From a virus (lineage: Duplodnaviria > Heunggongvirae > Uroviricota > Caudoviricetes): a DNA stretch of 64,000 nt. The notes beneath the pieces were generated by a model, which saw nothing but the letters and a program-made list of their open reading frames with translations, was not told the DNA's origin and ran no database searches. Shown here in pieces: positions 14,476-61,292 of this stretch. The position numbers and the translations under genes were made by a program. The DNA lies in IMG/VR virus record IMGVR_UViG_3300032070_000730. One strand, given 5' to 3'. Each line of letters starts with the position of its first letter. The first letter of the stretch is position 1.

Positions 14476-17400
14476 ATGCCAGCAGAACTTCTTCCAGTCG
14501 ATGAGTTTGGGACTTTTCTTCGTGATTACTACAGCCTGAACAAGCCGAGACAAAATTTTTGTTGGGACATGAATGAAGAAATACAGACAGCATTTTTACG
14601 GGGAACAAAAAGAATCACTGTCGATTTCAGAGCGATGGAACAATTTGATGAGAAAAATGATACTAACCTTGTCAAGAGTATATTGTCATTGAGTGGTAAT
14701 GAATTAGAGGCATTTATAAAAAAATTAGAGGAAGAACTGAATAATATAGACAGAGTTATGATATTAAGGGAAGGAGAAGAAAAAGAAAATTTAAAAATTG
14801 GTCTAAAAAACCTTCCGATGACCTTGAGAATCAGCGACATACTTGCAGAGAAGCATCAGGGAAAATTGATACAGGTTGAAGGAATAATCCAGAATATAGG
14901 GATACCATTCAGATTCGCAAGAAAAAAAGTCTTTATATGCGACAGATGCACTTACGAATTAAGAAAAATATTTGACATCAATGAGAGAAAGATTCCAGAA
15001 AAGATGTGGTGTCCTTCATGCAGTGCTGAAAGAACTTTTACAGAAAACAAAAGTCAGGAAATCGTTCTCATCACGCAGTTGTTAACACTCGCTGAAGGTG
15101 TTGCCATGTCGAGTTCTATCCCGATTTCTTTAATGGTAGTTCTGTTCGAGGATTTGATTGATAACCCAGACCCAGACAGACGAAAGTTCATCGCTGGAGC
15201 AAAATTAAGAGTCGCAGGGATGTTAAAAGAGATGAAGACCAATTCTCCCGTAAAAAAATTATATCTTGAAGTCCTTCACTGGGATGTAGAAGCAGAAGAC
15301 ATAAAATTCGCTGATTCCGATATTGAGGAATTCAAAAAAATGTCTACAGACAGTGGGTTGATTGATAAATTAATCGCAAGTTTCTCACCCAGCGTGTATG
15401 GATACGAGGATGTAAAACTCGGTATGATACTACAGATAGTTGGCGGAATCACTAAATATTCCGTGAAAGACAAGAAAATGAATCGTGGGACTATCCATAT
15501 ACTGTTAATTGGAGAACCCTCGACCTCGAAATCGACATTATCCTTATTCAATTATAATTATGTCCCGAAGACAAAACTCGCTGTGTGCAGTGAGTTGAGT
15601 TTAGAATATAACGAACCGATTATATTTTCAGAAGATGGTTTAATAAAAATAATGAAAATAGGTGAATTTGTAGAAAACTATTCCAAAAAAAATATAAAAA
15701 TTCCATCTATAAATCCGCACACTTTTAAGAGTGAATGGAAATCTCTAAAAGGGGTTTTTAAACATAAAGATAACAGAGATTTAGTAAAAATACTTCTTGA
15801 AACTGGAAGAAATATAACAATAACACAAGACCATAGCATTTATGTTGCAGATGGGGATGGAATACATACAAAAAAAGGAAATGAAATAGAAAAAGGAGAT
15901 TTTGTAATTATACCAAAAAAAATAGTCGTGCCCCATAAAAAACATAAAAAAGAAATAAATTTGGTCGAGGAACTATTAAAATTGCCGACAGAAAAAATAA
16001 AAGACATCTATCTTCATGGGATTCCAAGAAAAATTCTTAAAAAAATTGGCAGAACATATCAAACTCATCTTGAAAGAGGTTATTTGCCTTTGCTTGAGGC
16101 AAGAAAACTACCAAAAAACATTTTAAGAAAAGCAACAATTTCAACAAAACACATTCCAACATTTATTCCAATTGATGAAAGATTAACGACACTTCTCGGT
16201 TATTATGTTGCCGAAGGATACAATCGTGAAGAAAAAAATCATTATTATAAAATAGAATTTTGTTTTGGAAACAAGGATTCAGAATTGATAAAAAAAACCC
16301 AACAAATTGTAAAGAATCTTTTTAATTTAGAATGCAGAAAACAAAGGGTCTATCAATTGTCAGTCAATGATAAAATCATTACCTATTTTTTCAAGTATAT
16401 CCTTAAAGTAAAACAATATGCAAAAAACAAAGAAATACCAGAAATTATTTTCAATTCACCACTAAAATCACAACTTGCCTTTCTTCAGGCATATATGCAG
16501 GGGGATTATGGTATTTCTGCAAGCAAAAAATTGATTTCAGACATACAATATCTCGCTCTTTTAATGGGAAAAGTCATAACTTCGTATGATACAAAAACAA
16601 AACCTGCTTTAATAAGGGGAAGAAAAATAAATTCGCAAAAAATACATTTTCATATATCACGAGTTCCTTGTCAGGATTTGTTTCAGAAAAAATTAAACGG
16701 ATTGAAAAAAATCAAAAAAATCCCAGATAAACTTTTGCCATTTATATTCGGGAAAACATTTGGATATGAGAATAGAAATATGAGGACTAATTCTAAAAGT
16801 TTGAAAAACAGGGCATTACAAAATGGATTTAATATGACCAAAAAAGAAATGAATTTCTTCAAAAAACTGGAACAATCTGATATTGGCTTTGTTAAAGTTA
16901 GAAAAACAGAAAAAATATTTCATAAAGATAAGTTTGTTTATGATATTTCTGTTGATGATAATGAAAATTTCATTGGGGGGTATGGTGGAATCCTATGTCA
17001 TAACACTGGGGCTGGGCTCGGCGTTGCTATGCTGAAAGACAAAGAAACAGAAAGTTGGTATCTATCTGCTGGAATTCTTCCTTTGAGTCACAAAGGATTG
17101 TGCATTCTTGATGAAATCGATAAAGCAAATCCAGAGGATATAAAATCTTTGGATATTGTCATGAGTTTACAGAAACTTCCTGTCTCAAAGGCAGGAATAA
17201 ACATCACACTTCCTGCTGAAGCGTCTGTCCTCGCTATAGCAAACCCCAAAGGTGCAAGATGGGACGCTTACCGAGACCTAAAAGACCAAGTAAATCTCTC
17301 CGAAGTGACGCTTTCCAGATTTGACTTGAAATTCTGCTTCAAAGACATTCCAAACGAAGAGAAAGACAAAATGATTGCAGAAAGAATCATAGATTCTGAT

Positions 17401-17958
17401 AATGTCGAGACACCTTTCACTTCCGAGTTTCTTGTAAAATATTTAATGTATGCCAAGACCATGAAACCAAAATTAACCGAAGCGACCACGAAAAAACTGA
17501 CAGATTTTTATATGGAGATGAGACAAAAAACCAAAGAGCAATCAGGAATCATGGTCATAACACCGAGACAGTTCGAGGGTATGATTAGAACATCGGAAGC
17601 ATTTGCAAAGTTAAGACTGGCTGAAGAGACAAATGAGTTGGATGCAGATAATTCTATAAAATGTTTCAAGGGGTTTTTGCGTTCATTTGGTTTTGATTAT
17701 GATACAGGTCAACTCGATATTGACAAAGCAGAAGGAAGGACATCTGGTCAGACAAGAAAAGACACGAGAGAAATGACAGAAATATTCGAAGATTTAAGGA
17801 GCATGTTCGGTGAAAGAGTCCCATTGTCAGATTTTACAGAGGCGTGCGAAAAAGAGGGAATACAAAGGGCAGGCGAAAAAATAAAACAAGCCATAAGAGA
17901 AGGATTGTTTTATCAAAAAGTCGGAGAAGAAGAAGATAAATTTATTAGAAAAGTATAA
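14476..17958 (+). CDS. mcm: MCM replicative helicase with inserted intein
   Basis: N-terminal C4 Zn finger CDRC...CPSC; Walker A GEPSTSKS; Walker B CILDEIDK; sensor-1 AIANP; Arg finger SRFDL. Length 1160 aa is explained by an intein in the P-loop region. Confidence 0.85.
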   Translation: MPAELLPVDEFGTFLRDYYSLNKPRQNFCWDMNEEIQTAFLRGTKRITVDFRAMEQFDEKNDTNLVKSILSLSGNELEAFIKKLEEELNNIDRVMILREGEEKENLKIGLKNLPMTLRISDILAEKHQGKLIQVEGIIQNIGIPFRFARKKVFICDRCTYELRKIFDINERKIPEKMWCPSCSAERTFTENKSQEIVLITQLLTLAEGVAMSSSIPISLMVVLFEDLIDNPDPDRRKFIAGAKLRVAGMLKEMKTNSPVKKLYLEVLHWDVEAEDIKFADSDIEEFKKMSTDSGLIDKLIASFSPSVYGYEDVKLGMILQIVGGITKYSVKDKKMNRGTIHILLIGEPSTSKSTLSLFNYNYVPKTKLAVCSELSLEYNEPIIFSEDGLIKIMKIGEFVENYSKKNIKIPSINPHTFKSEWKSLKGVFKHKDNRDLVKILLETGRNITITQDHSIYVADGDGIHTKKGNEIEKGDFVIIPKKIVVPHKKHKKEINLVEELLKLPTEKIKDIYLHGIPRKILKKIGRTYQTHLERGYLPLLEARKLPKNILRKATISTKHIPTFIPIDERLTTLLGYYVAEGYNREEKNHYYKIEFCFGNKDSELIKKTQQIVKNLFNLECRKQRVYQLSVNDKIITYFFKYILKVKQYAKNKEIPEIIFNSPLKSQLAFLQAYMQGDYGISASKKLISDIQYLALLMGKVITSYDTKTKPALIRGRKINSQKIHFHISRVPCQDLFQKKLNGLKKIKKIPDKLLPFIFGKTFGYENRNMRTNSKSLKNRALQNGFNMTKKEMNFFKKLEQSDIGFVKVRKTEKIFHKDKFVYDISVDDNENFIGGYGGILCHNTGAGLGVAMLKDKETESWYLSAGILPLSHKGLCILDEIDKANPEDIKSLDIVMSLQKLPVSKAGINITLPAEASVLAIANPKGARWDAYRDLKDQVNLSEVTLSRFDLKFCFKDIPNEEKDKMIAERIIDSDNVETPFTSEFLVKYLMYAKTMKPKLTEATTKKLTDFYMEMRQKTKEQSGIMVITPRQFEGMIRTSEAFAKLRLAEETNELDADNSIKCFKGFLRSFGFDYDTGQLDIDKAEGRTSGQTRKDTREMTEIFEDLRSMFGERVPLSDFTEACEKEGIQRAGEKIKQAIREGLFYQKVGEEEDKFIRKV
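15586..17004 (+). other. intein (473 aa) with LAGLIDADG homing endonuclease domain inside MCM
   Basis: Begins at the Cys after KTKLAV. LAGLIDADG blocks LLGYYVAEGY and FLQAYMQGDYGIS. Ends ILCHN followed by Thr (+1), then the extein resumes GAGLGVAM. Confidence 0.7.
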
Positions 17959-34403: not shown

Positions 34404-34790
34404 ATGTCTGGTTCTGGAAAGGTTAATGACATTGAGTTTGAAGCGATTCAAACAGCAGTGAGAATGTTCAGCAAGAATATAATATTGTATTCTGACAATC
34501 TTCCTGCTATTCATAGAGCAAAGGGAATTTTTAATGGCATGGAAATCCGACATATAATGGGGAAGGACAATCCTGCACATAAGTCGCTATGCGGGTGCGG
34601 GATGCCTAAAAAAATAAAAGAGATAAGGCACGAAGAGATAAAAAAAAGAATCAGAGAAATAAATGAAATCTCATACAAAAAACCAAATTACATGACGGTA
34701 ATGACACCAGAAGGAGAAAGAATCATGAGCCAGTCGAAATTCAAAAAATATGTGAGGTTCATGCAGAATAAATTTTATCACAACAAATAA
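34404..34790 (+). CDS. hypothetical protein
   Basis: 128-aa basic ORF. Confidence 0.3.
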   Translation: MSGSGKVNDIEFEAIQTAVRMFSKNIILYSDNLPAIHRAKGIFNGMEIRHIMGKDNPAHKSLCGCGMPKKIKEIRHEEIKKRIREINEISYKKPNYMTVMTPEGERIMSQSKFKKYVRFMQNKFYHNK

Positions 34791-34934
34791 TTAAAAAAAA
34801 AGAAAAAAATAGGCTATTTACTTCGCAGTGACGCTTCCGCCAACAACTTTAGCAGACAAATAATTAAAAAAAAAAGAAAAAAATAGGCTATTTACTTCGC
34901 AGTGACGCTTCCGCCAACAACTTTAGCAGACAAA
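34788..34934. repeat. tandem direct duplication (2 x ~73 bp)
   Basis: Unit TAATTAAAAAAAAAGAAAAAAATAGGCTATTTACTTCGCAGTGACGCTTCCGCCAACAACTTTAGCAGACAAA occurs twice head-to-tail (one extra A in copy 2). Copy 2 carries the last 14 codons plus terminator T-run of gene 34892..37099. Confidence 0.8.
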
Positions 34935-37099
34935 GAGTTAATTCCTGAAAGTGCTTGAACATAATTGTTCAAAGTCAAACAGGCATATCTCGTGTCTGTT
35001 GCGGAATAACCAGCGACAACGACTACAGTTCTTCCTGCTACGAAAGCATTTGGAATAACAAAGATGTATGCTTCATTTTCTTTCCATCCGCTTCCAGTTC
35101 CGCCTGCACATGTGTATTCCTGACCCAACTTTCCGTTGTCAACAAGTTTCTGAACCATGCTGTTAGCACAAGAGCCACCGATTAAAATCAGATTTGTGTC
35201 GGTGTCTTGATTAACTTCTGTGTCAAGTTTTGAAACAGAGGTCGTTATTGGTTTTGTCTTGTAGTAATATTGCGTTTCATTGCCGATTATTATAGTTCCA
35301 GTCCCTTCAACAATGACTTTTGCTTTAACTTGGTCTGCTGGAATCTTCAACTGAACTTTGTCTGAACTGCCTTCATTATCGGGGTTGGATATGATGACAC
35401 CAAAAGCGGTTCTCAAATCATTATCCTTTGTTCCGATTGTCTTGTTGTTCCATAAAAGTTCATTTGCTTCAGATTGACCATCAAGAGCACCAAGCGAATC
35501 GAATTCGTTGCCACTCTGATGAATCCAAGCAGATGTGTTGTCATTGCTTATCACACCGTCTTGAACTTCAAGATATAGTGTGTTGTTGCTGAAGTTTCCT
35601 GTCAATGACAGAGGAACTTTATTTCCTTTTGTGCTTTTGTAGTTGACATATCCGAACACATTATTGTCGGATGGGTCGTTGTTGATTATAGTTCCTGCGA
35701 ACTTCCACGCACCGTCTTTATTGTAGTAGAAGACGCTTACATTTCCTTGAGTCGCATTCTGCGAGAACAAATAAATCTTTCTTGTCTTCATGTCATCAGT
35801 GAAATTGTTTCCTTTTAAAGACCAAGCAGGAGAATCGTGCCATAGCAAGATTCCATCATCTGCGGGTGCTAAAAATTGGAATACACTTTCTGATGTTCCC
35901 CATGAGAAAGATTGTTCATTCGCTCTGGAAAGGTCAACTGAATTTCTCAATGACAATTCGTATGACGCATAATCTGCATCATCGACGGTCAATTTATCGA
36001 AACAGACAGAAATATATTTCTCTCCTTTCGGAACAGAATAACAATCACCTTCAGTTACTGGATTGTCATCTATGCTGTTCTTGACCATATCGTTCTTGAC
36101 ACCAATCACTGGAATCAAGGTATTCAAATCGTCAATTTCCCAAATCCAATCTGGGTCAGTCTTGCTTTCACCTATGAATGCATCTCCGTCTTTGTAAGTC
36201 TTTTCGATGTCAGAACCAACTAATAGTTGTGCAGAGCCACTTCCATTCTCTTCAGCGAATGAAACCAAGATTTTTATCTTGAGCCCATTGACAGTTTTTG
36301 CTGTCGTTCCAACTATAACCTGTTCTCCATCGACTGAAACTATCGCCCTATCATTGTTTGATACTGCGATAAGTTTCAATATTTTGCCTTCTACCGTCTT
36401 TGTTTCTCCAGTGGAGAGAACAATTTCCTGACCAAGTTGTGCAGTAAAAGATGTCTGGCTGTTGACTTTGGTTATCGTCAATTTGTTTCCAAGTATGAAA
36501 ACTTCTAACGGTTCATCTTGGCTCGCTGTAGTTATGTTTATGTCATCATCGAACACATGGTAATAGGCTATATCGCCTCTATTAATTTCCATGTAGACAT
36601 TTTCTTTGTAGTCATCTTTGTTTCCTGTCAAACTTGTCTGCATGACTGGCGTGTTATTTCCCAGTCTTATCTCTTCATGCATATCATAGGAATCTCCCTG
36701 AAAGTCAATCGATGCATCTTGAAGACCTTTGATTTCATTGTTCGTCAATGTTCTATCAATCAATCCAACACCAGTTATAGGTGAACCCAAAGGAATATCT
36801 TCCGATTGTGCTCCGCTAATCTGTCCTGATATTGGGATGGTAACTTTTTCAGTGTTGTCACCAGCAAGTCTTATCATAACATCGATTGCACCAACAACAT
36901 CTTCTGTCGATGCTCTCTGTCCAACTATGACAAAAGCCTTTAGATTGTTATTTGAATCAAATAGGAATTGTGGATAATTGGATAGATAGTATAGTTGTTG
37001 GTTTGACGGTGTAGTAGTCGCTGTAGTATTCTGCGAAGTTGCAAAGCCTATGAGACATACTATAGATAGTAATGCCATAGCAACTGCAACTAATTTCAT
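34892..37099 (-). CDS. large secreted surface (S-layer-like) protein
   Basis: Signal peptide MKLVAVAMALLSIVCLIGFATS; 735 aa, Thr/Ser/Asn-rich with many N-x-S/T sequons; adjacent glycosylation island. Confidence 0.5.
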   Translation of the reverse strand: MKLVAVAMALLSIVCLIGFATSQNTTATTTPSNQQLYYLSNYPQFLFDSNNNLKAFVIVGQRASTEDVVGAIDVMIRLAGDNTEKVTIPISGQISGAQSEDIPLGSPITGVGLIDRTLTNNEIKGLQDASIDFQGDSYDMHEEIRLGNNTPVMQTSLTGNKDDYKENVYMEINRGDIAYYHVFDDDINITTASQDEPLEVFILGNKLTITKVNSQTSFTAQLGQEIVLSTGETKTVEGKILKLIAVSNNDRAIVSVDGEQVIVGTTAKTVNGLKIKILVSFAEENGSGSAQLLVGSDIEKTYKDGDAFIGESKTDPDWIWEIDDLNTLIPVIGVKNDMVKNSIDDNPVTEGDCYSVPKGEKYISVCFDKLTVDDADYASYELSLRNSVDLSRANEQSFSWGTSESVFQFLAPADDGILLWHDSPAWSLKGNNFTDDMKTRKIYLFSQNATQGNVSVFYYNKDGAWKFAGTIINNDPSDNNVFGYVNYKSTKGNKVPLSLTGNFSNNTLYLEVQDGVISNDNTSAWIHQSGNEFDSLGALDGQSEANELLWNNKTIGTKDNDLRTAFGVIISNPDNEGSSDKVQLKIPADQVKAKVIVEGTGTIIIGNETQYYYKTKPITTSVSKLDTEVNQDTDTNLILIGGSCANSMVQKLVDNGKLGQEYTCAGGTGSGWKENEAYIFVIPNAFVAGRTVVVVAGYSATDTRYACLTLNNYVQALSGINSLSAKVVGGSVTAK

Positions 37100-38452: not shown

Positions 38453-39975
38453 AAGAGATAACAATCGACGAAGAATTCTTGCAGGCATTATTCCTATTTT
38501 CATGCTTGTTTTTATTCTGTGCCTATGTTTATTTCGCAACGAAGACGCAACCTTTGGGAGAAGATGAAATTACTTATATGAGGATTTCAAAAGAAATCTA
38601 TCAAGGAAGATTTACTGGGTTTACTTCTGATGGTCATCCAGTTTCCGCTCCATTGATGCTATCAATCATATCTTCTGGTCTGTTCTCAATATTTGGAGTA
38701 AAACTTGCTGTGTTGAAAGCAATATCTACAATCTTTGGATTTTTTTCCCTGATTTTTATTTATTTCGCAGTAAAGAAAACAAAAGGAATAATGCCAGCGA
38801 TAGTTGCATCATCGTTGATGCTATCAATATTTTTATTTTCGCATTTGCTGATGCTGGCTTATGTTGAAACTCTGATAATGTTTTTCTCATCGCTGATAAT
38901 TTTTCTTTTGACGAGGGGTAGAAGCATTAGTTATGGAATCCTTCTCGGAATAACAATCGCACTTTCTCTTTTTGCAAAACATTCTGCGATGATGTTCATA
39001 CCGATACTTCTAATATATTTTTTCTGGTCTGGAGAACACAAGTTATACAAGAAATATATCATAATCGCCATGTTGATACCAATTCTTGTATGGGGGTTGT
39101 TCGCAATTCATAACATATTGACATACAAGATACCAGCAATCTTTGGTCTTGATACTATATGGATTTACTTCTATGGAGACCCATACCCCCCAACTTCTTT
39201 GCCAGAGTTCAGCAACACTGGGGTATATTTTATAATTCCAATGGTTCAGGATTTTGGAATCTTGCCGATGCTATTCATGTGCGTGGGATTTTTTTATGTT
39301 TTCAGTGAAACGGAAACAAAGATAACTAAAATATCCCACATAGCAATCTTGGTCTTCCTTCTTTTCTCTGCTTACTATGGATTCAGACATGAGACACGTT
39401 ATCTTATGATAATTGTTCCATTTATGGTCTTCGGGACTATTGGCTATTGGAAAGAATTGCAGAATTTTTTTGAAGAACAAGGAAAGACTTGGGCATTTTA
39501 TATTATAATACTTGGGTTGACTGTTTTTTCCATAAAAACAAGCGTTGACACGGTTTTGCTAACTTCAAGGTCGCAGAGATGGAATCCATCTTATGTTCAA
39601 GGTCTTTATTGGTTGAGAGACAATACGACAATCAATTCGACTGTGTTCACTGCATACGGTGGAAGTGTTTATTATTATGCAGAGCGTGACTATACTTGGG
39701 TCACATCAAAATTCCCAGAAATAATGACTACAACCAATTCAACAATAATATACAATGATTTGCTCGAACAGAAAGCAGATTATATCTATCTCTGGCAGGG
39801 AATTGTAGCAGACAATTATGTAGTTCCGCAGAGCAATCTTTTCGGAGTTTTCACGACAAACTTTCTCAATGTTGTAAGTGCAGACAAGACCCATTTCCAA
39901 CAAGTATTTTCAAATGATATTGGTGTAATTTTCAAGGTTGTAAAAAATGAAAGTCAGTCTGGTATTAGTCAGTAA
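38437..39975 (+). CDS. GT-C family membrane glycosyltransferase (ArnT/PMT-like)
   Basis: 512 aa, ~11 TM helices; conserved LGEDE in the first loop typical of GT-C (GT39/GT83). Confidence 0.5.
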   Translation: MEWKIKEITIDEEFLQALFLFSCLFLFCAYVYFATKTQPLGEDEITYMRISKEIYQGRFTGFTSDGHPVSAPLMLSIISSGLFSIFGVKLAVLKAISTIFGFFSLIFIYFAVKKTKGIMPAIVASSLMLSIFLFSHLLMLAYVETLIMFFSSLIIFLLTRGRSISYGILLGITIALSLFAKHSAMMFIPILLIYFFWSGEHKLYKKYIIIAMLIPILVWGLFAIHNILTYKIPAIFGLDTIWIYFYGDPYPPTSLPEFSNTGVYFIIPMVQDFGILPMLFMCVGFFYVFSETETKITKISHIAILVFLLFSAYYGFRHETRYLMIIVPFMVFGTIGYWKELQNFFEEQGKTWAFYIIILGLTVFSIKTSVDTVLLTSRSQRWNPSYVQGLYWLRDNTTINSTVFTAYGGSVYYYAERDYTWVTSKFPEIMTTTNSTIIYNDLLEQKADYIYLWQGIVADNYVVPQSNLFGVFTTNFLNVVSADKTHFQQVFSNDIGVIFKVVKNESQSGISQ

Positions 39976-40669
39976 GGATGAAAGAGAATATGTGAGACCA
40001 TTTTTTCATACACTAAAACTTCAAACAAGAAAACCAGAACAGATAATCCTTGTAGATTCGTCAACTGATGGAACTTTTCAAATCGCAGAACAATTTGTCG
40101 ATAAATCATTTTGGACACCACCAGCACCTGTTGGATATTGCCGACAAGTCGGTTTCGAGAATTCTACAGGAGATATAATCATTTTCACCGATTTAGATGC
40201 ACTTCTTAATCCATTTTGGATTGAGAACTTGGTCAAAATGTTTGAAAATCCAGAAGTCAATGTTGTAAGGGGGACGGTCAGATATAGGGAAATAAAAGAT
40301 AAAATCCCGAAGAAATTCACGACAATCCATCACTGCAATACAGCATACAGAAGAAAAGTGCTGGAAGAATTTCCTTTTGATGAAGAATGTAATCATGATG
40401 ACATAGACATGAATGAAAGAGTCGGGAGAAAATATAAAATATACGGATGTCCAGAAGCGATAGTCCTTCACATAGGCTCTTTTGCGAAGACTTCTGCGAA
40501 GGAGAAAGCAAGGAGATACGCCGAAGCAGACATATATCTTTTAAAGAAATATAAAACATTGTTTATGTTCTTCAGACCATTCGCCAACGCATTATATTCT
40601 ATGATAATTGAACGAAGGATAAAATACAATTTCTATTATATTTGGTTCTATACGAGGGGGTTGATATAA
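39947..40669 (+). CDS. GT2-family glycosyltransferase
   Basis: VSLVLVSKDE...ILVDSSTDGT and DxD TDLDA. Confidence 0.6.
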   Translation: MKVSLVLVSKDEREYVRPFFHTLKLQTRKPEQIILVDSSTDGTFQIAEQFVDKSFWTPPAPVGYCRQVGFENSTGDIIIFTDLDALLNPFWIENLVKMFENPEVNVVRGTVRYREIKDKIPKKFTTIHHCNTAYRRKVLEEFPFDEECNHDDIDMNERVGRKYKIYGCPEAIVLHIGSFAKTSAKEKARRYAEADIYLLKKYKTLFMFFRPFANALYSMIIERRIKYNFYYIWFYTRGLI

Positions 40670-41281
40670 ATGGAAAATTTTTATGAAAGATATTGGAAGG
40701 AAAGGAAAGACACACCAAAATGGACAGAAGAAGTATTAGATAAAAAATATTCTTTCATAAAAAAATATTTGAACGGAAAAATACTTGATGTTGGATGTGG
40801 TGAAGGTGCTGTTACTTCTTTTCTTCATGATAAAGGTTTAGATATTATGGGATGCGATATATCTAAAAGAGCAATAAAAATAGCGAGGCAAAAACATCCA
40901 CAAATAACATTTTTAATCAAAGATTTCAACACAGAAACAAATTTCATGAATGAATCATTCGATGGAATAATATTATTCGAGGTGATTGAACATATTTATG
41001 ATACTAATAATCTTTTCAAAGAACTAAATAGGATAACAAAAATTGGTGGTAGATTATTCATAACTACTCCTCAAATGTATCTTATTAAAAATCTTTTGAT
41101 TTCATTCCTATGGGATTGGTATTTCAAACCAGACAGTCCTCATATCAGGTTCTATACTTTGAATTCTTTAAAAACAATTCTCTATAAATTCGGGTTCATT
41201 CTCGAAAAATATAAATCAGATGGGACTTGGTTGAAAATATTTCCCAAAGGAATGTTTGTGGTGGCGAGGAAACATGAATAG
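40670..41281 (+). CDS. class I SAM-dependent methyltransferase
   Basis: Motif I ILDVGCGEGAV; ...RLFITTP. Confidence 0.6.
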   Translation: MENFYERYWKERKDTPKWTEEVLDKKYSFIKKYLNGKILDVGCGEGAVTSFLHDKGLDIMGCDISKRAIKIARQKHPQITFLIKDFNTETNFMNESFDGIILFEVIEHIYDTNNLFKELNRITKIGGRLFITTPQMYLIKNLLISFLWDWYFKPDSPHIRFYTLNSLKTILYKFGFILEKYKSDGTWLKIFPKGMFVVARKHE

Positions 41282-42755
41282 AATCTCTTTTGTCGTTCCT
41301 GCTCACAACGAGGAAGACAACATAAGCAGATGCATATACAATCTGCTTGAATACAAAAGAAAAGAGGATGAAATAATAGTCGGTCTTGGATACATAGCAT
41401 CGTTGCTTGAGAAGAACGGTTATGAAGTAAAAATAGAAGAAATGAGTTTGGTGACTTCGGAGAAAGAAATTGAAAACAAGATTAAGATGCACCATCCAGA
41501 TGTCGTTGGAGTTTCCTGTTTTACTAATTTCAGATACGGGGCTTTCAGGACATTGGAAATAGCGAAAGAAGTTGACCCAGACATAATAACTCTTGCTGGC
41601 GGTTCACACGCAACCCTGATGTCAGACCAAGTGATGAAAACTCAAGACAAAATAAATTTCATAGTTCTTGGTGAAGGGGAATGCACGACAGTAGAATTAT
41701 TGCAAACTTTAGAAAAGAACGGGGATGTCAAAAAAGTAAAGGGAATTTGTTTTAAGAAAAACAAGGAAATAATCTACACTGAACCAAGACCGCTTATAGA
41801 GGATTTAGACATACTACCATTTCCAGCAAGGCATTTGATGGATTTGAGTCTGTATTCTGACATAGGAAGAGACAATTATTTCAAGACGATAAGGGGCAGT
41901 GAGTTTCACGGAGAAAAAATATCAAAGTTCAAGAAGTCCTTCATAATGGGGAATCGAGGCTGTCCATTTTCCTGCCAGTTTTGTTCAATATCAAAATTTT
42001 GGTGTCATCGATGGAGAGGAAGAAGTCCAGAGAACGTAGTTGATGAAATGGAATATCTATCGGAAAGATTTAACATAAAAGTGATTGGTTTTAATGATGA
42101 CACATTCTCTGTGAGCATCGACAGAGTGATTGGAATATGCAAAGAGATAATTAAAAGAGGACTTGATATAAAATGGTTTTCTACTACAAGAGCAGACCGT
42201 GTTTCTATTGAGATGTTAGAATGGATGAAAAAATCAGGATGTTTTATGATTGCATATTCGCCAGAATCAGGCTCTCAAAAAATCCTTGATAATATAAACA
42301 AACGCATCACGGTAAAAGATATTATCAAGTTTCACGAACTGTGTCATAAAGTTGAACTTCCTGTCGGTATCGGGTTGATGGTCGGTAATGTTGGAGAGAC
42401 AAATGAGACAATGGAGGAAACGATAAAACTTTTGGATGTAATCAGACCAGAAGGAGTTGGTGTCAATCTAACAACAGTCTATCCAGCCACAGGATTGTAT
42501 GAATTAGCAAAAAAACAAGGGTTCATAAATGATGATGACTGGTTAAACCCGAATTTTTTAGCACCAATATATACCGTAGAAAATTCTATGGAACAGTTGA
42601 TGAAATGGAAACAGAAAATAATGATGCATTACTATCTAAAGATTTTTGGGTTCAAAAGAGTAATGAATTACTGTATTGAAAATATGGAAGATGTTCCAAA
42701 GGTTTTGAATTACTGGCTGAAAAGAACTTTTGGTAAAAGGCATCAAATAATGTGA
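41256..42755 (+). CDS. B12-binding radical SAM protein with chimeric GT2-derived N-terminus
   Basis: B12-binding GYIASLLEKNGYEV...GGSHAT; radical SAM CPFSCQFC. First ~40 codons duplicate the N-terminus of GT2 gene 43403 (28-nt identical stretch). Confidence 0.6.
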   Translation: MWWRGNMNRISFVVPAHNEEDNISRCIYNLLEYKRKEDEIIVGLGYIASLLEKNGYEVKIEEMSLVTSEKEIENKIKMHHPDVVGVSCFTNFRYGAFRTLEIAKEVDPDIITLAGGSHATLMSDQVMKTQDKINFIVLGEGECTTVELLQTLEKNGDVKKVKGICFKKNKEIIYTEPRPLIEDLDILPFPARHLMDLSLYSDIGRDNYFKTIRGSEFHGEKISKFKKSFIMGNRGCPFSCQFCSISKFWCHRWRGRSPENVVDEMEYLSERFNIKVIGFNDDTFSVSIDRVIGICKEIIKRGLDIKWFSTTRADRVSIEMLEWMKKSGCFMIAYSPESGSQKILDNINKRITVKDIIKFHELCHKVELPVGIGLMVGNVGETNETMEETIKLLDVIRPEGVGVNLTTVYPATGLYELAKKQGFINDDDWLNPNFLAPIYTVENSMEQLMKWKQKIMMHYYLKIFGFKRVMNYCIENMEDVPKVLNYWLKRTFGKRHQIM

Positions 42756-43399
42756 TGAAAATGAATAGAAGATTAAAATTTATAATACAAAATTCTTTGA
42801 ATGGGAAAAGTTTGGATTGTGGTTGCACTCAAAACCAAAATTTTCATGATAATCTTGTAAAGTTATCTAATTTTAAATGGTTTAGTGTTGATAAAAATCC
42901 ATTCTATAGAGGTAAAAAATTTAGAAATTCAGGATTTTTTATATGTAATGTAGTTCACTTATCATGCAGAAATGAGGTTTTTAGTAATATTTTCGCTGGT
43001 GAATTAATAGAACACATAACTGAAAAGAATGGCATAAAATTTATAGATGAAATTCATAGAGTATTAAAAACAGGGGGGAAACTTTTTATTACTACACCTA
43101 ATAAAAAAAGTTTAATGAATAGAGTTATCCATAATAATGAGCATATCGAACATTTACATTTATATGATTTCAATGAGTTAATAACAAAATTAACAGAACA
43201 TAGATTCAAATGTTTAGAAATTTCTGGTGATTTTTATGATGAAAAAGAACTTTTAGGCAATCCTAAAATTAGCGGAATTTATATTGGTAGTGATACAATA
43301 AAAATTGGTGAAATTTTAAAACCAATTAGATTTCTGTTAAATAAATTATTACCGTTAGAATTAAGGGAACAAATAAGAATAATAGCAAAGAAGGTTTGA
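42752..43399 (+). CDS. SAM-dependent methyltransferase (paralog of 40670..41281)
   Basis: LDCGC..., KTGGKLFITTPNK. Confidence 0.45.
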   Translation: MMKMNRRLKFIIQNSLNGKSLDCGCTQNQNFHDNLVKLSNFKWFSVDKNPFYRGKKFRNSGFFICNVVHLSCRNEVFSNIFAGELIEHITEKNGIKFIDEIHRVLKTGGKLFITTPNKKSLMNRVIHNNEHIEHLHLYDFNELITKLTEHRFKCLEISGDFYDEKELLGNPKISGIYIGSDTIKIGEILKPIRFLLNKLLPLELREQIRIIAKKV

Positions 43400-43402
43400 A
43401 TA

Positions 43403-44329
43403 ATGAAAGTATCATTTATTATTCCATGTCATAACGAAGAAGAAAACATACGAAAATGTCTGGATAATCTTGAAAATTATAAAAAAAAAGAGGATGAAAT
43501 AATAGTCGGTCTTGATGCATGCACCGATAAGACAGAAGAGTATGTTCGATTATTCGGAATGAATTTCATAAAATCGGAACAGAATATAGGAAAGCATGGA
43601 ATATTGAAAAAACTAATAAAAAAATCTCATGGAGAAATAATCATAATTCATGACGCTGATTGGTTTCTTTCTGGGCAGAAACCATTGTCCGCATTGATAA
43701 AATATTTTGATGATAAAAAGGTCGGGGGAATAGCAAATTCATTTTCAATGACATTCGCCAACAGAAAAATCTGCAAAGGAATTGCATATCTTGGGGATGT
43801 TTGGTGCGATTATTTTCTGAACGAATTCAAGAAAACCTATTATACCAAGAGAGAAAATGGGATTCTTTATGTGGATGAGAAAAAAATGTTTTTTCCTTTC
43901 TTCCTGAATGTAATCAGAAGAGAAATTATAACAGAAGCGATAACAGGTGCTGATGATTTGGAAAGAGTTCTTGACATAATTAGGAAGGGGTATAAGATTG
44001 TAGTCCTTGAAGATGAAGAGATTCCGCATCAGGTTGTTCAATACAATTATATATCACTTCCAAATTTATACAAACAGAAACTGCGTGGTCATCTGGCAAG
44101 AAAACAAATCAAAAGGCATTACAATTATAGCACGAGCGTAAGAAAATTCTATCTCCCGATGACAATTTTCCTTCTCCGTAAAATGTTAAAAATACATTCA
44201 ATAAAGATGGTTGCTTCCATGTCTGTGTGGATTGGTATAACTGCTATTTCTTATATTCACGCACTCATATTAAATTCGATGGGGCATGTTACGACTGAAA
44301 GGTTGTGGAAGGAGATGAGAATAAGATGA
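43403..44329 (+). CDS. GT2-family glycosyltransferase
   Basis: VSFIIPCHNEEENI...IVGLDACTD...IIIHDADWF. Confidence 0.6.
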   Translation: MKVSFIIPCHNEEENIRKCLDNLENYKKKEDEIIVGLDACTDKTEEYVRLFGMNFIKSEQNIGKHGILKKLIKKSHGEIIIIHDADWFLSGQKPLSALIKYFDDKKVGGIANSFSMTFANRKICKGIAYLGDVWCDYFLNEFKKTYYTKRENGILYVDEKKMFFPFFLNVIRREIITEAITGADDLERVLDIIRKGYKIVVLEDEEIPHQVVQYNYISLPNLYKQKLRGHLARKQIKRHYNYSTSVRKFYLPMTIFLLRKMLKIHSIKMVASMSVWIGITAISYIHALILNSMGHVTTERLWKEMRIR

Positions 44330-45216
44330 TAAAACTGATAAAATACAAACATTTTTCAAAAGAAAATAAAAAAAGAATAATTAATTTTATTAAAAATCAT
44401 CCTAAATTAAATTATTCAAAAATAGGTAAACATTTTAATTTAGAAGGAAGTAGAATTAATTACATTGCATTAAAATATACTAATATTAGAAGACCCAAAC
44501 CCAAATTAAAAACATCTGTTTGTTTATATTGTAAGAATCCTTTTTCATATCCAAATTGGAAAATTTATAAAGATAGAAAATATTGCTCACACGAATGTTT
44601 TTTAAAATCTGGAAATGCACATAAAGTTAAAAAAATAACTAAAAAATGTGAGGGGTGCAAAAACAAATATGTGATTTTACCTTGTTATTCATCTCGAAAA
44701 TATTGCTCACACGAATGTTTTTTAAAACATCTTAAAATTTGGAATAAGGGGTTAACTAAATATAATGATATACGATTAGAAAATAGTGGAATAAAGGTAA
44801 GGAAATGGGCTTTAATGCATAAGAATCCAACTTTATTTAAAAAAAACGACCCAAATCATCCTATGAAAAATTTAAAAATAAAAAGAAAAGCATTAAAAAG
44901 TCTTTTTAAAAGACCAACAAAACTCGAACAAAAATTTATCCTTTTTTTCAATAAATACTCTCTCCCATTCAATTATTGTGGAGATGGTTCATTTTTTATC
45001 GGTGGATTATGCCCAGATTTTGTAAATAAAAAAAAGAAATTTTGTATGGAAGTGGGAAATATGCGATTTAAAACACGAATTGCAAAAATTAATCCTAAAA
45101 ATTATGAACAACAAAGAATTTTACATTTTGCTAAATATGGGTGGAAATGTTTTGTTATATGGGAAGAAGATTTTAATGAAGGTGAACTTGTTGAAAAAAT
45201 TAGAGGAAATATCTAA
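44305..45216 (+). CDS. HTH + duplicated Zn-finger + C-terminal PD-(D/E)xK-like nuclease domain protein (paralog of 56603..57376)
   Basis: Two CxxC...CSHEC modules encoded by an exact 31-nt internal repeat (44577-44607, 44697-44727). C-terminus GGLCPDF...CMEVG..K...AKYGWKC aligns with 56603..57376. Confidence 0.45.
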   Translation: MEGDENKMIKLIKYKHFSKENKKRIINFIKNHPKLNYSKIGKHFNLEGSRINYIALKYTNIRRPKPKLKTSVCLYCKNPFSYPNWKIYKDRKYCSHECFLKSGNAHKVKKITKKCEGCKNKYVILPCYSSRKYCSHECFLKHLKIWNKGLTKYNDIRLENSGIKVRKWALMHKNPTLFKKNDPNHPMKNLKIKRKALKSLFKRPTKLEQKFILFFNKYSLPFNYCGDGSFFIGGLCPDFVNKKKKFCMEVGNMRFKTRIAKINPKNYEQQRILHFAKYGWKCFVIWEEDFNEGELVEKIRGNI

Positions 45217-46878: not shown

Positions 46879-47169
46879 ATGATAGATAAAGAAGGCAAAA
46901 AGAAAATACGACGAATACTTTTTGCAAAAATACCAGTAGACACAATACTTGCGATAGAAGGCGAACCAAAATTCATAAGAGAACTGTATAAAGCAATGCC
47001 AGACTTTGCCCAGTCATACATACACAACATGGTCAAAAAGTTCAAAGACAATGGTATGATAAAAACAAAAAAAAGCGGAAGAAAGGTTTTTGTAAGTCTT
47101 ACAAAAGATGGTCAGAGATTTGTTAATGTTTTAAGACCAGTAATGAAAAAATGGTGTGATTATGAGTAG
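46879..47169 (+). CDS. winged-helix protein
   Basis: 96 aa; FIRELYKAMPDFAQSYIHNMVKKFKDNGMIKTKKSGRKVFVSLT. Confidence 0.35.
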   Translation: MIDKEGKKKIRRILFAKIPVDTILAIEGEPKFIRELYKAMPDFAQSYIHNMVKKFKDNGMIKTKKSGRKVFVSLTKDGQRFVNVLRPVMKKWCDYE

Positions 47170-47290
47170 AGTATTTTTCGTAAATCCAATGTATTCACGA
47201 GATTTTAGTAAATCAGCAAACGATTGAAGAGTCGACTTTACCTTGACTTTTTCTATCGGCTGAAGATGGCATGCTAAATCTCGTGGACGT

Positions 47291-48637
47291 GTGCAAAGAC
47301 ATTGTGATTTTTTAGCGATGGCTACTGCTGTCACTCGTGAAGCGGGTCATCAGGTATATCTGTTAGATGCACAAGCGAAGAATCTGCCATATCAAAAAAC
47401 AATGGAAATGCTTGAATTTTTCCAACCAGAAATAGTGGTAATCTGGTGCACAACTCCAACGATTTACAATGACATAGCATTTGCAAACATGGTAAAAATA
47501 AAAGATAAAGGATGCATGACGGTTCTTGTCGGTGCACATCCTTCATCGCTTCCAGAAGAGACGCTGAAGATTTCTGATAAGATTGATGCTGTTGCGGTCA
47601 ATGAATTTGATTATACAATCAGAGATTTGGCTAACGGAACTCCTATGGAGAATTGTATTGGTCTTGTTTATAGAAAAGGGAATAAAATAATCAGGAATAA
47701 ACCGAGACCGTTCATTGAAGATTTGAATTCACTTCCATTTCCTGCATGGGAATTTTTAGATGTTTTTGATTATTCTGATGCAGGAAAATTATATCCATTC
47801 ATAACACAGATTGGAAGTAGAGGTTGTCCAAACATCTGCACGTTCTGTCATAATCGTTATACAATCTCTGGCGGAACATTCAGAAAACAATCACCGCAGA
47901 GAAGACTTGACGAGATACAGCATGATTTTGAATTGTTTCCAATGCTAAAAGAAATAATGATTGAGGATGATACTTTAGTTTCAAAAGAAAACGAGCGGGA
48001 TGCATTAGATTTTTGTTGGGAAATAATAAACAGGGGAATGGATTTTACTTGGAGTGCTAATGCAAGACCGAACATCACAAACTCACTTTTGTTAAGAACC
48101 ATGAAAAAATGCGGGGCAAGAATGTTTTGTGTCGGTTATGAAAGTGGTTCTCAAGAAGCATTGAATGTTGTGAACAAGAGAATAACTCTTGATGAGATGA
48201 GAATGTTTTCAAAACTGACAAGGATGAATGATATAGAAGTAAACGGCTGTTTCATGATTGGTTTTCCAAACGAGACGAGGGAATCTGCCTTGCAGACGAT
48301 AGAATTTGCAAAAGAATTGAATCCAAATACGGCACAATTCTCTGTTTTAGTTCCATATCCAGCGACACATTTCTATAATTGGGCAAAACAAAATGGTTTT
48401 ATAGTAGCAAAAGATTGGACTGAATGGGTCGATAATAATTTTGAGCAGGCTACTGTGATTTCATATCCGCAACTTTCAAGGGAAGAAATGACAGAATTTG
48501 CTGACAGGGGTTTAAAGGAATTCTATTTGCGAAAAGATAAAATCATAGAATTGTTATTCAACATAAAATCTATGGCAGATATTCACAGATTCTATCATGG
48601 GATAAGAAGTTATATCAACTATTTTCTGAAAATTTAA
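47291..48637 (+). CDS. B12-binding radical SAM protein
   Basis: B12 domain AMATAVTREAGHQVYLLD...VGAHPS; radical SAM CPNICTFC; GTG start. Confidence 0.6.
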   Translation: MQRHCDFLAMATAVTREAGHQVYLLDAQAKNLPYQKTMEMLEFFQPEIVVIWCTTPTIYNDIAFANMVKIKDKGCMTVLVGAHPSSLPEETLKISDKIDAVAVNEFDYTIRDLANGTPMENCIGLVYRKGNKIIRNKPRPFIEDLNSLPFPAWEFLDVFDYSDAGKLYPFITQIGSRGCPNICTFCHNRYTISGGTFRKQSPQRRLDEIQHDFELFPMLKEIMIEDDTLVSKENERDALDFCWEIINRGMDFTWSANARPNITNSLLLRTMKKCGARMFCVGYESGSQEALNVVNKRITLDEMRMFSKLTRMNDIEVNGCFMIGFPNETRESALQTIEFAKELNPNTAQFSVLVPYPATHFYNWAKQNGFIVAKDWTEWVDNNFEQATVISYPQLSREEMTEFADRGLKEFYLRKDKIIELLFNIKSMADIHRFYHGIRSYINYFLKI

Positions 48638-53856: not shown

Positions 53857-54867
53857 GTGAAAATAATGTTAGAAGGGAAAATAGTGAATATTAGAAAAAT
53901 GGAACAAATATTAAAGGAATATTTTGAAAATGGAACAGGAACGCCAACCATAGGAATAAAACATGGTATTAATCCAACGACTATACAAAAATGGTTAGGG
54001 GGAAAACACAGAAAAAACGAAGTTAATTTTTTGATGAAAAAAAATAATTGGAGATTAAATAAAAAATTAAGAAAAAAAGTATTTTCTAATGGACATAAAA
54101 TAAGAGGTTTAAATAGACGAAAAGAGATTTTATCAGGTTTTAATAAAGAAATGGCTTATATGTTTGGTGCTATTATTGGAGATGGCTCGGTATCTGAAGA
54201 TGGTATTTCTTTTAATTTATGGGATAATAATTTTGTAAAGGAATGTTTAAAAAATGGAGAAAGGGCTTTCCATATTAAAGGTATGTTTAAAATTTCTTAT
54301 TGGAAGGGGTATAAGACAAAATATTATACATTAAATTTTTATTCGAGAAATTTGAGAGATTTTTTTAGAAAATTTAAAAAATCAACAAAATTTTGGTTAA
54401 TTCCACAACAAATTAAAAATAACACTCAACTAAAGATTAATTTTTTAAAAGGATTTTTTGATGCAGAAGGATGTGTTGTCTTTAGTTTACTAAAATATAA
54501 AAATAAAACATATAAACGATGTTATATTTCTTGTAGTTCCACAAGTTTAGGGGGTCTAAAACAAATTTCCGCTCTTCTCAATAATTTGAAAATATATCAT
54601 GGTTTTTATTCCTATAAAAATAATTATGAATACAGAATAACAATATATAGAGAATCATTAGAAAGATTTAATATTCTGATAGGATTTAGAGTTGAAAAAT
54701 TCAATTTGCGTTTAAATTCTTATTTAAAAGAGGTGATGAATAATGGGAGAACAAAAATATTTAATCCTCGACATCGAAAGGTTAATGAATTAAATTTTAA
54801 TCCGATAAACGACAGGATTAGATGCGAACACATCCCAATTAATATCAATCGGAACAATGAATCTTGA
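53857..54867 (+). CDS. free-standing double-motif LAGLIDADG homing endonuclease with N-terminal HTH
   Basis: MFGAIIGDGSVS and LKGFFDAEGCVVFS LAGLIDADG blocks. Confidence 0.7.
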   Translation: MKIMLEGKIVNIRKMEQILKEYFENGTGTPTIGIKHGINPTTIQKWLGGKHRKNEVNFLMKKNNWRLNKKLRKKVFSNGHKIRGLNRRKEILSGFNKEMAYMFGAIIGDGSVSEDGISFNLWDNNFVKECLKNGERAFHIKGMFKISYWKGYKTKYYTLNFYSRNLRDFFRKFKKSTKFWLIPQQIKNNTQLKINFLKGFFDAEGCVVFSLLKYKNKTYKRCYISCSSTSLGGLKQISALLNNLKIYHGFYSYKNNYEYRITIYRESLERFNILIGFRVEKFNLRLNSYLKEVMNNGRTKIFNPRHRKVNELNFNPINDRIRCEHIPININRNNES

Positions 54868-55333
54868 TGATGGACAAGAAACGATTTATTTTGTGAACAA
54901 CCCAAAAGAAGAAAAGGATATTATAGAGAAGTTCTTTAATCTACTGATAATAGCAGATTACAGGATTATTAGTTATTATGGGAGTTATTTTGATGTTCCA
55001 TTTATTGTTTCAAGGGCACTGACTCTTGGGGTAGATGTAAAGAAATATAGGAAGATTTTTCCATTCAGACAGATAGATGTTTATGATGTAGTGAAAAGAA
55101 ACTTGAAATTATCAAAGAATTCTCTCGGAGATGTATGCAAATTTCTTGGAATAGAAAAACGGTTCGACATACAGGGAATGGATATGCCAAATTTCTATTT
55201 GAAGGCTATCAGTGGAGATACAGAAATACGGAAAAAAATTGATGAGCATTTGAGAGAAGACCTTGCGACTTTGCGGGATGTGTGGTTGAAAATCATGCCA
55301 GTCATCGATTTAAGCAGGTGGGAAAAGGAATGA
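54743..55333 (+). pseudogene. DEDDy (PolB-type) 3'-5' exonuclease domain gene, apparently interrupted
   Basis: Exo I-like YLILDIE at 54758-54778 is in frame with, but separated by two TAA stops from, ORF 54857..55333. That ORF carries Exo II YYGSYFDVPFI and an Exo III-like Y...D helix. The 5' part lies under the 3' end of the LAGLIDADG gene. Confidence 0.4.
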
Positions 55334-61164: not shown

Positions 61165-61292
61165 ACCCCAATTTAGCGGGAAATCGGCGGTTATAAAATG
61201 CCTAAACCATCTTTACCTATTTTATATCTTTCCAATTTCCTTTCGCTTATGAAATTTAAACATTTTAGACTTAAATAACTGTTGAGCAGTTA

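Follow-up and report, generated by a model that had tools for sequence, protein, structure and literature searches.

A glycosyltransferase start fused in frame to a cobalamin-binding radical SAM gene at a recombinant, strain-variable locus of an archaeal replicon

Genes and repeats at the fusion locus

The stretch of DNA examined here (64,000 nucleotides of the IMG/VR record IMGVR_UViG_3300032070_000730, called the window throughout) contains a chimeric gene in which the 5' end of a family 2 glycosyltransferase (GT2) gene runs in frame into a gene for a cobalamin-binding radical S-adenosylmethionine (SAM) enzyme, abbreviated rSAM below. Its neighbours, as annotated with Pfam, are a PMT_2 protein, three GT2s, two methyltransferases (MT), and a second cobalamin rSAM, a content that suggests a glycan-modifying role for the cluster. 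The variable part of the cluster comprises the following features, where A, B, and C are haplotypes defined in the next section, N' and N are two alleles of the GT2 5' end, GC is the guanine plus cytosine fraction, and L and P numbers denote the loci and proteins used for comparison.

39947..40669, plus strand: GT2 of 240 amino acids (aa) (GT2-240; Pfam PF00535), conserved left anchor of the variable region in A, B, and C
40670..41281, plus strand: MT203, class I SAM methyltransferase (Pfam Methyltransf_23/11/25), A-type cassette, its stop overlapping the start of the chimera
41274..42755, plus strand: chimeric gene, 493 aa, GT2 residues 1-38 joined to cobalamin radical SAM residues 28 to the end
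41274..41388, plus strand: GT2-derived 5' segment (N' allele, GC 0.37), the same as the 5' end of the A-type 309-aa GT2
41360..41388: 29-nt exact direct repeat, copy 1 (AAAAGAGGATGAAATAATAGTCGGTCTTG; sequence comparison)
41380..41388: illegitimate joint, TCGGTCTTG (GT2) against TCGGTTTAG (rSAM of L001) and TTGGTCTCG (rSAM of L009)
41389..43514: B-type segment of 2,126 bp, namely the rSAM from codon 28 onwards, MT215, and codons 1-37 of a B-type GT2
41389..41579, plus strand: rSAM 5' patch unlike L001, a diverged allele (codon comparison)
42752..43399, plus strand: MT215, second class I methyltransferase (Pfam), B-type cassette, GC 0.245
43403..44329, plus strand: resident full-length GT2 of 308 aa (GT2-308), mosaic (Pfam, single-nucleotide polymorphisms (SNPs))
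43486..43514: 29-nt exact direct repeat, copy 2, right-hand homologous joint of the insert (sequence comparison)

The mechanically called open reading frame (ORF) of the chimera spans 41256..42755 and encodes 499 aa from a TTG codon; translation likely starts at the ATG at 41274, which is favoured because GAGGA precedes it and because it overlaps the MT203 stop (ATGAATAG). Residues 1-38 from this start read MNRISFVVPAHNEEDNISRCIYNLLEYKRKEDEIIVGL and are followed by GYIASLLEKNGYEV, and the peptide stretch across the fusion is IIVGLGYIASLLEK. Three Pfam profiles match the product, with residue numbers that refer to the 499-aa TTG-start ORF:

Residues 11-42: Glycos_transf_2 (PF00535), profile positions 1-32 of 168, 25.4 bits against a cut-off of 23.3
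Residues 37-148: B12-binding (PF02310), profile positions 10-120 of 121, 68 bits
Residues 234-393: Radical_SAM (PF04055), E = 7.7e-23

The first nine positions of the B12-binding profile are absent, and the native first strand (beta1) and loop of the rSAM, 27 residues, have been substituted; the switch from GT2 to rSAM falls at a Gly-Leu common to both parents. The motif CPFSCQFC corresponds to CxxxCxxC, and C230, C234, and C237 are invariant in 48 aligned sequences. Judged from its sequence, the chimera is not a glycosyltransferase: profile positions 1-32 of PF00535 are all that is present of a GT-A catalytic domain, the GLD of GT2-308 and of the protein P0248 has become GLG, and everything downstream is rSAM, so that the GT2 acidic residue and DxD-type motifs are missing.

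The 29-mer occurs exactly twice in the window (0 expected from 100 shuffles) and closes a 103-nt direct repeat of 75% identity (41286-41388 and 43412-43514), past which the two copies are wholly unlike (GATACATAGCA in the rSAM, ATGCATGCACC in the GT2). The preliminary description of this DNA had already recognised the shared stretch, giving it as 28 nt rather than the 29 nt found here (41360-41388 = 43486-43514). Its main proposal, a GT2 N-terminus fused to a B12-binding radical SAM enzyme, is confirmed by Pfam, by the repeat, and by the comparison with orthologues, and the homology that it saw between this N-terminus and the GT2 at 43403 is borne out by 24 identical residues among the first 37.

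The joint itself can be followed base by base. Before and after the junction, the GT2 reads ATAGTCGGTCTTG and ATGCA, the rSAM of L001 reads CCACTCGGTTTAG and GATACATAGCA, the rSAM of L009 reads CACTTGGTCTCG and GATACATAGCA, and the window reads ATAGTCGGTCTTG and GATACATAGCA. The microhomology amounts to 7/9 to 9/9 nt, without similarity beyond it on either side, and pairs GT2 codons 36-38 (V-G-L) with rSAM codons 25-27 (L-G-L). Homology between the window and the B-type locus L001 ends at 40663 and resumes at 41380. A remnant of rSAM codons 1-27 was sought in the window and none was found, which excludes inversion or translocation as the origin.

A homologue search over 5.8 billion proteins gave 1,882 significant homologues, 120 of which were listed and about 47 of these inspected or aligned for their N-terminus. 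Orthologues without a GT2-like N-terminus are found at 98% (L001-L004), 73% (L005-L007), and 72% identity (L008/L009), and the closest listed proteins, P0001 (98%), P0002 (73%), and P0003 (72%), have the canonical start MKVLLINPPDLLDVEMEHL.SSEPLGLGYIAS. The start patterns of the orthologues are M[RK]VLLINPPDLL.V.MEHL.SSEPLGLGYIAS and M[RK]VLLINPPD...EPLGLGYIAS, and more distant aligned homologues likewise begin with the canonical beta1 (M-K-x-L-L-x-x-P-P). For P0001 the gene call begins at an internal Met; the contig DNA has an in-frame TTG start that yields MRVLLINPPDLLNVNMEHLISSEPLGLGYIAS. In L001 and L009 this TTG start of the rSAM overlaps the stop of GT2-240, and in L006 an ATG start of the rSAM overlaps the stop of the methyltransferase gene MT174. 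The preliminary description had raised the possibility that orthologous rSAMs share these N-terminal residues. Since every one of these orthologues (98%, 73%, and 72% identity) has a canonical start, the N-terminus of the chimera is, on this comparison, not ancestral, and the fusion stands: the gene has lost rSAM codons 1-27 and gained GT2 codons 1-38. An ancestral architecture, in which this rSAM subfamily would naturally have a GT2-like N-terminal extension, is next to untenable, as nothing speaks for it beyond the window itself, all of the roughly 47 homologues inspected among the 120 listed have the canonical beta1, and none of those 120 carries a precomputed GT2 (PF00535) annotation.

Haplotypes and origin of the fusion

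By exact-protein look-ups and BLAST of the window against the fetched loci, four haplotypes were defined:

Haplotype A (L011, L012, L014, and the 309-aa protein P0248): GT2-240, MT203, intact GT2
Haplotype B (L001-L004): GT2-240, full rSAM, MT214/215, GT2-308
Haplotype C (the window and L010): the chimera arrangement
Haplotype D (L013): MT203, N' codons 1-33 out of frame with the end of an rSAM, third methyltransferase type

The first 38 residues (115 nt) of the A-type GT2 are those of the chimera, and its remainder is the body of GT2-308 of the window. Haplotype C equals haplotype A plus 41389-43514 (2,126 bp, flanked by the two 29-mers); this segment is present in the window and L010 and missing from the A-type contigs, and in L011, L012, and L014 the same MT203 protein is followed by an intact GT2. 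MT203 is not found in B-type L001/L002, and it shares 29% identity with MT215. The donor of the N-terminus was an alternative allele of the same GT2 gene, which lies intact (309 aa) behind MT203 in sibling haplotypes; the resident GT2 at 43403 was not the donor, since it is only 75% identical to the 5' end of the chimera. Of the recombination between paralogous cluster genes that had been suggested in the preliminary description, the microhomology-mediated character holds, and the paralogues give way to two haplotypes.

The assignment of the parts follows from the base differences. L014 (A) aligns with the window in two blocks, 39893-41388 and 43515-43883, skipping the sequence between them; the left block contains 2 differences in 1,496 positions and the right one 2 in about 370 nt. 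L001-L004 (B) differ from the window at three positions in 41580-43485 and by 3-5% in the flanks on either side. Directly behind the second 29-mer, A-type bases appear in the window (43522, 43524, 43540, and others). Codons 1-28 of GT2-308 (43403-43485; N allele, GC 0.24) are B-type and the A-type SNPs of L014 begin at 43522, a pattern that makes GT2-308 a mosaic in which a B-type N allele (to 43485) precedes an A-type body. The base composition agrees, with a GC of 0.37 for N' against 0.34 for the GT2 body and of 0.24 for N against 0.245 for MT215, which marks N' as the native 5' end and MT215 plus N as an imported low-GC block. Within 41389-41579, 16 codons differ from L001 (13 synonymously, 3 non-synonymously); to judge by these substitutions, the 5' region of the donor's rSAM is a different allele that evolves as normal coding sequence, and the donor was itself a mosaic.

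Related orders are found further away. An A-like order without rSAM (GT2-243, MT203, a LAGLIDADG gene, GT2-328) occurs in the diverged lineage L022-24, where MT203 is 82% identical, and a B-like order occurs in the 72-73% lineages (L005-9). Haplotypes A and B were found together in sample 3300035688 (L014 and L001). Haplotype C is known as one clone only, its protein cluster has two members (P0001 and the chimera), and a metagenome scan with GT2-240 gave two loci only and no further C-type contig.

The comparison of these contigs demonstrates the architecture, both parents, the breakpoints, and the recency of the joint at the sequence level. As for how it came about, a recent fusion within a recombinant, strain-variable cluster on an archaeal replicon, in which an A-type genome received a B-type stretch to give C, is considered the best explanation, with a probability of about 0.78. 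Haplotypes A and B, the two older ones on this account, co-circulate, and an A-type genome would have acquired the 2,126-bp B-type stretch. On its right side, homologous exchange would have taken place at the 29-mer, the first stretch where the GT2 alleles are identical; on its left side, an illegitimate join at the 9-nt microhomology would have connected GT2 codons 36-38 to rSAM codons 25-27. The GT2 5' end would thereby be duplicated and placed in frame before rSAM codon 28. The rSAM would be deprived of its native start, of beta1, and of the loop behind it, and would take over from the GT2 the ribosome-binding site, the MT203-coupled start codon, and the beta1 strand. We infer the direction (A plus B to C) and the enzymology of the joint; this is the most parsimonious history.

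Several observations weigh against this account. The direction is unproven, and L014 is the exact product expected of a deletion between the two 29-mers of C. The right crossover is confined to the narrow interval 43486-43521. The patch 41389-41579 is about 9% diverged from every B contig compared, so the true donor is not among these. L013 has an independent-looking joint at the same 29-mer, which would be unexpected for a one-off accident. Lastly, the chimera is represented by identical copies only, which makes its intact ORF uninformative on selection.

The first of these points leads to the reversed direction, namely that the chimera came first, for example by a microhomology-mediated tandem duplication (rSAM codon 28 to GT2 codon 38) in a B-like genome, with cassettes exchanged afterwards, and that A-type contigs are later deletions between the 29-nt (103-nt) repeats. 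Haplotype A is indeed exactly what remains of C once the 2,126 bp separating the repeats are removed, a deletion of this kind is mechanistically simple, and L013 resembles a further deletion inside a C-like gene. Nonetheless, the order MT203-then-GT2 without rSAM is also present in the 82% lineage L022-24, the composition of N' is that of the GT2 body and N shares the low GC of MT215, C is a single clone, and the duplication model needs at least two extra cassette replacements, MT203 and MT215 being 29% identical. The reversed direction is therefore held to be decidedly unlikely, although single A contigs such as L014 may derive from C by deletion between the 29-mers. A recent internal tandem duplication as origin is ruled out by the 29% identity of MT203 and MT215 and the 75% identity of N and N'.

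An assembly artefact, i.e., co-assembled A and B strains misjoined at the repeat, could appeal to the 29-nt exact repeat in the region and to the sample that A and B share (3300035688). However, a misjoin at the 29-mer yields N'-GT2 or N-GT2 and never N'-rSAM, and at the true joint the parental sequences have no more than 9 nt in common, far under the k of any assembler. Moreover, three data sources (JGI/IMG, Logan, and ENA) contain the same 493-aa protein, and the window is matched at 100% identity by a Logan contig (a k=31 assembly) of 7,605 nt. An artefact of this kind is accordingly very improbable.

The favoured history, recent acquisition of a B-type stretch by an A-type genome, resembles a described process. 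Homology-facilitated illegitimate recombination (HFIR; de Vries and Wackernagel 2002, as summarised in PMC6382021) involves foreign DNA, one homologous anchor, and a joint at 3-10 bp of microhomology. Here, likewise, one homologous anchor (the 29-mer plus the GT2 body) is combined with an illegitimate joint at TCGGTCTTG and an insert of 2,126 bp; the joint shows short microhomology, both parents (A and B) have been found, and the other end lies in true homology (43486-43521). In contrast to HFIR, which was defined in naturally transformable bacteria, the present case concerns co-circulating haplotypes of a replicon that is archaeal and probably viral or plasmid in nature. Its illegitimate joint falls within the anchor itself, so that the recipient loses no DNA and 29 nt come to be present twice.

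A second likeness is to surface-polysaccharide loci (O-antigen, capsule), which show cassette-type mosaicism. These share with the present locus the conserved flanking genes, swappable cassettes of modifying enzymes, breakpoints inside the flanks, and an abrupt GC shift (0.24 vs 0.35), but here the locus is on an archaeal element that encodes MCM, PCNA, and Orc, and one breakpoint produced an in-frame fusion between families instead of a clean swap. The kind of event is already known, and the chimera is a well-documented example of it, not a new kind of system. Public metagenomes contain both parents, the product, and a decayed derivative at 99-100% identity, so that the breakpoints are known to single-base precision. 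The case illustrates cleanly, in a natural setting, how a new N-terminus arises when illegitimate recombination occurs at a protein-level 'GL' microhomology.

The decayed derivative is the following feature:

L013 1621-1871 (= L015): decayed chimera relative, N' codons 1-33 out of frame with the last 166 nt of an rSAM

Its joint has 8 nt of microhomology, GATGAAAT, inside the same 29-mer; the rSAM remnant is 7% diverged from that of the window and is followed by a third methyltransferase type, related to MT174 of L006. L013 shows that such fusions can simply decay. In or near the 29-mer lie the boundaries of the cassettes MT203 plus N' and MT215 plus N as well as the joints TCGGTCTTG (window) and GATGAAAT (L013). 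This raises the question whether the GT2-308 5' end with its 29-mer is a recurrent recombination hotspot, possibly triggered by a nuclease, that shuffles methyltransferase and rSAM cassettes. The motif GATGAAAT(A/T)AT is conserved across all lineages, so that the coincidence at the 29-mer arises partly because it is the first usable homology, and the hotspot is viewed as doubtful. Were it real, the chimera would be functional and a GT-A beta1 could replace the beta1 of a cobalamin Rossmann domain.

LAGLIDADG genes are possible drivers of the local mosaicism. In L022 (6283-7100; also in L023 and L024) a free-standing LAGLIDADG gene of 257 aa lies between MT203 and GT2, behind a duplicated GT2 start (MRISFI) and about 100 nt upstream of the 29-mer, and further LAGLIDADG genes occur in the window (53857-54867) and in L009. 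Insertion of such a gene at the 29-mer as the direct cause was rejected, as in L022 the gene follows GT2 codon 6 and not the 29-mer; its position supports a role of the endonuclease only indirectly. Separately, the 5' part of GT2-240 in the window (39946-40245) has 90 differences over 300 nt (~30%) to L011, L012, and L013, and the next 1,100 nt are identical in L011-L013, which is another sharp recombination boundary. The locus can be flagged as a hypervariable glycan-modification region of an archaeal replicon.

Predicted fold and fate of the chimeric protein

AlphaFold, run with the 48-sequence alignment, predicts the chimera with a mean confidence (predicted local distance difference test, pLDDT) of 87.2 and a predicted template modelling score (pTM) of 0.89. 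The N-terminal elements of the models of the canonical P0002 and of the chimera are as follows:

Beta1: P0002 residues 2-7, pLDDT 94; chimera residues 3-8 (ISFVVP), pLDDT about 85
Loop: P0002 residues 8-24, pLDDT about 57; chimera residues 13-32, pLDDT below 50
Alpha1: P0002 residues 25-36; chimera residues 28-47
Beta2: P0002 residues 40-45; chimera residues 51-56

In the model, the position vacated by the rSAM beta1 is occupied by the GT2 beta1 strand, and the loop exceeds the canonical one by about 10 residues; the succession of strand, low-confidence loop, helix, and strand mirrors that of P0002. A caution to this reading is that the strand placement may reflect the MAFFT alignment to the canonical beta1 column. 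The preliminary description had set the switch at IIVGL and taken this segment to fit both domains; the Gly-Leu is indeed common to both at the switch, whereas the substitute for beta1 in the AlphaFold model is the GT2 beta1 and not IIVGL.

Foldseek matched the model to TsrM (6wte), MgmA (9ccb), CysS (9n1b), AprD4 (6fd2), TokK (7kdx), and OxsB (5ul4), with E values of 5e-22 to 5e-19, a probability of 1.00, and TM scores of 0.63-0.70 (query-normalised). With these enzymes the chimera shares a predicted N-terminal cobalamin-binding Rossmann domain and a CxxxCxxC radical SAM barrel. It differs from these class B rSAMs in that their identity to it is 16-19% and in that the first strand and loop of its Rossmann domain have been swapped for the N-terminus of a GT-A fold. 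Given the adjoining PMT_2, GT2, and methyltransferase genes, the substrate is presumably a sugar or a lipid-linked glycan.

A functional enzyme is plausible on the structural model, and the odds that the chimera folds and binds cobalamin with the GT2 strand ISFVVP in place of VLLINPP are put at even. Falling somewhat short of even odds is the alternative that, with the same origin, the gene was dead on arrival, a by-product encoding an inactive rSAM without beta1 and the loop below the cobalamin, and is being lost. The low pLDDT (below 50) of the GT2-derived residues 13-32 and the absence of positions 1-9 of the Pfam B12-binding profile are in line with inactivity, as are L013, a decayed version, and the A-type genomes, which do without the rSAM. 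On the other hand, the joint preserves the reading frame, all 493 codons are open with intact start signals, and AlphaFold keeps the whole fold (pTM 0.89) with a strand at beta1, the canonical loop being of low confidence as well (pLDDT about 57 for residues 11-20). These points on ORF and fold weigh little against a dead by-product, because the fusion is too young for decay. If the chimera is active, it represents a natural experiment on how replaceable the first strand and loop of a cobalamin Rossmann domain are.

Bulge-helix-bulge inserts and other features of the window

The second cobalamin rSAM of the cluster was described in the preliminary description, from its start at 47291, as lacking a canonical N-terminus. 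This claim does not hold, as the N-terminus is encoded in frame upstream (47162-47219), past a 45-nt insert of the bulge-helix-bulge (BHB) type. The second rSAM, its orthologues, and two further genes have the following features:

47162..48637, plus strand: second cobalamin rSAM, with exon 1 at 47162-47219, BHB-type insert at 47220-47264, and exon 2 at 47265-48637
L021 854-872: insert of 19 nt in the second rSAM orthologue, at the same site as the window insert
L021 897-916: insert of 20 nt in the same orthologue, 24 nt downstream of the first
L006 7471-7491: insert of 21 nt in the second rSAM orthologue, 3 codons further on
54743-55333: gene of a DEDD (DnaQ-like) exonuclease, with a 30-nt insert (54779-54808) inside its DIETTGL motif
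61173-61241, minus strand: candidate third BHB-type insert of 69 nt, AGCG-AAA-GGAAAT...ATTTCC-CGCT-AAA, in a small ORF

Upstream of 47291, the frame reads MSRVFFVNPMYSRDFSKSAND, a stop, RVDFTLTFSIG, a stop, and RWHAKSRGRVQRHCDFLAMATAV, where intact relatives have MKIFFVNPMYSLGFSKSARWSAKSRGRTQRHPDYLAMATAV (P0123; L022 is similar), and the 45-nt insert accounts for the stops with two in-frame TGA codons. The insert has the form CAGC-AAA-CGAT...ATCG-GCTG-AAG, i.e., a 4-bp helix CAGC/GCTG, 3-nt bulges AAA/AAG, and an inner helix CGAT/ATCG. Archaeal BHB introns are cleaved between bulge nucleotides 2 and 3 (PMC2738675), and a cut at this position gives TCA GCA AGA TGG, which encodes SARW; the predicted spliced gene is an uninterrupted ORF of 476 aa with the canonical N-terminus MSRVFFVNPMYSRDFSKSARWHAKSRGRVQRH. 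The exonuclease insert follows the same design (ATCG-AAA-GGTTAA...TTAATC-CGAT-AAA), and the predicted spliced exonuclease aligns with the uninterrupted orthologue of L005 (11693-12235).

In all five inserts (5/5), excision restores the ORF residue for residue with the intact orthologues P0123, L022, and L005 at the junction. Both inserts of L021 and that of L006 have the same layout as the window insert, and minimum free energy folding of the L021 and L006 sequences recovers the helix, the bulge, and the hairpin. As the outer helix is weak or missing, the motif corresponds to the relaxed BHB form. The inserts of L021 and L006 fall in the same 45-nt stretch, and the second rSAM orthologues of L019 and L022 are free of inserts; insertion must therefore have occurred independently at least three times in this short region, with strains differing in the inserts that they carry. 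Pseudogenisation of the second rSAM and translational bypassing of the gene-60 type were both dropped in favour of BHB splicing: the take-off and landing codons mismatch, and the 24-nt exon between the two inserts of L021 encodes RWSAKSRG only after excision. A naive BHB scan of the whole window gave 324 matches, almost all of them noise, and inserts were accepted on the basis of an AAA bulge, Watson-Crick helices, and support from orthologues.

From their sequence, the inserts look like micro-introns of protein-coding genes processed by EndA. Similar to the pre-mRNA intron of crenarchaeal cbf5 (PMC2738675), they are short inserts in a coding gene with a relaxed BHB, in which cleavage at bulge position 2/3 restores the ORF. 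They differ in that the host genes are those of a cobalamin rSAM and a DEDD exonuclease on a mobile-element-like replicon, and in that the inserts are 19-45 nt long, occur up to two within 45 nt, and are polymorphic between strains, with splicing predicted from sequence. Beyond the cbf5 intron of crenarchaea (PMC2738675), no other pre-mRNA introns of BHB type were found in the literature searched. The presence of BHB-type inserts in at least two protein-coding genes of the window and in orthologues is a more consequential by-product of the analysis than the fusion.

As for the element itself, the window encodes, according to PHROGs and Pfam, an MCM with an intein, an Orc/Cdc6-like AAA protein, PCNA, XPB, TnpB, an S-layer-like protein, and LAGLIDADG genes. 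The MCM, Orc/Cdc6-like, PCNA, XPB, and TnpB genes amount to a replication set of archaeal type, and the element is an archaeal replicon, probably a virus or plasmid. No tRNAs were found in the window, and no capsid gene was found among the neighbouring ORFs with PHROGs and Pfam. Close relatives were found neither in GTDB, where a PCNA query gave one match of 26%, nor in IMG/VR, and three viral-contig scans gave nothing useful.

Further observations in the window are as follows. The MCM helicase gene (14476-17958) is broken by an intein with a LAGLIDADG domain and is preceded by the Orc/Cdc6-like AAA gene (13366-14475), and a TnpB / Cas12f-like (OrfB_IS605) gene lies at 11311-12534. At its 3' end, the S-layer-like gene (34892-37099, minus strand) runs into a tandem repeat at 34783-34941 (unit of 74 nt, 2.2 copies, 96% matches). 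The ORF at 44305-45216 contains a 43-nt direct repeat (44565-44727, copies 120 nt apart) that duplicates the cysteine motif KYCSHECFLK.

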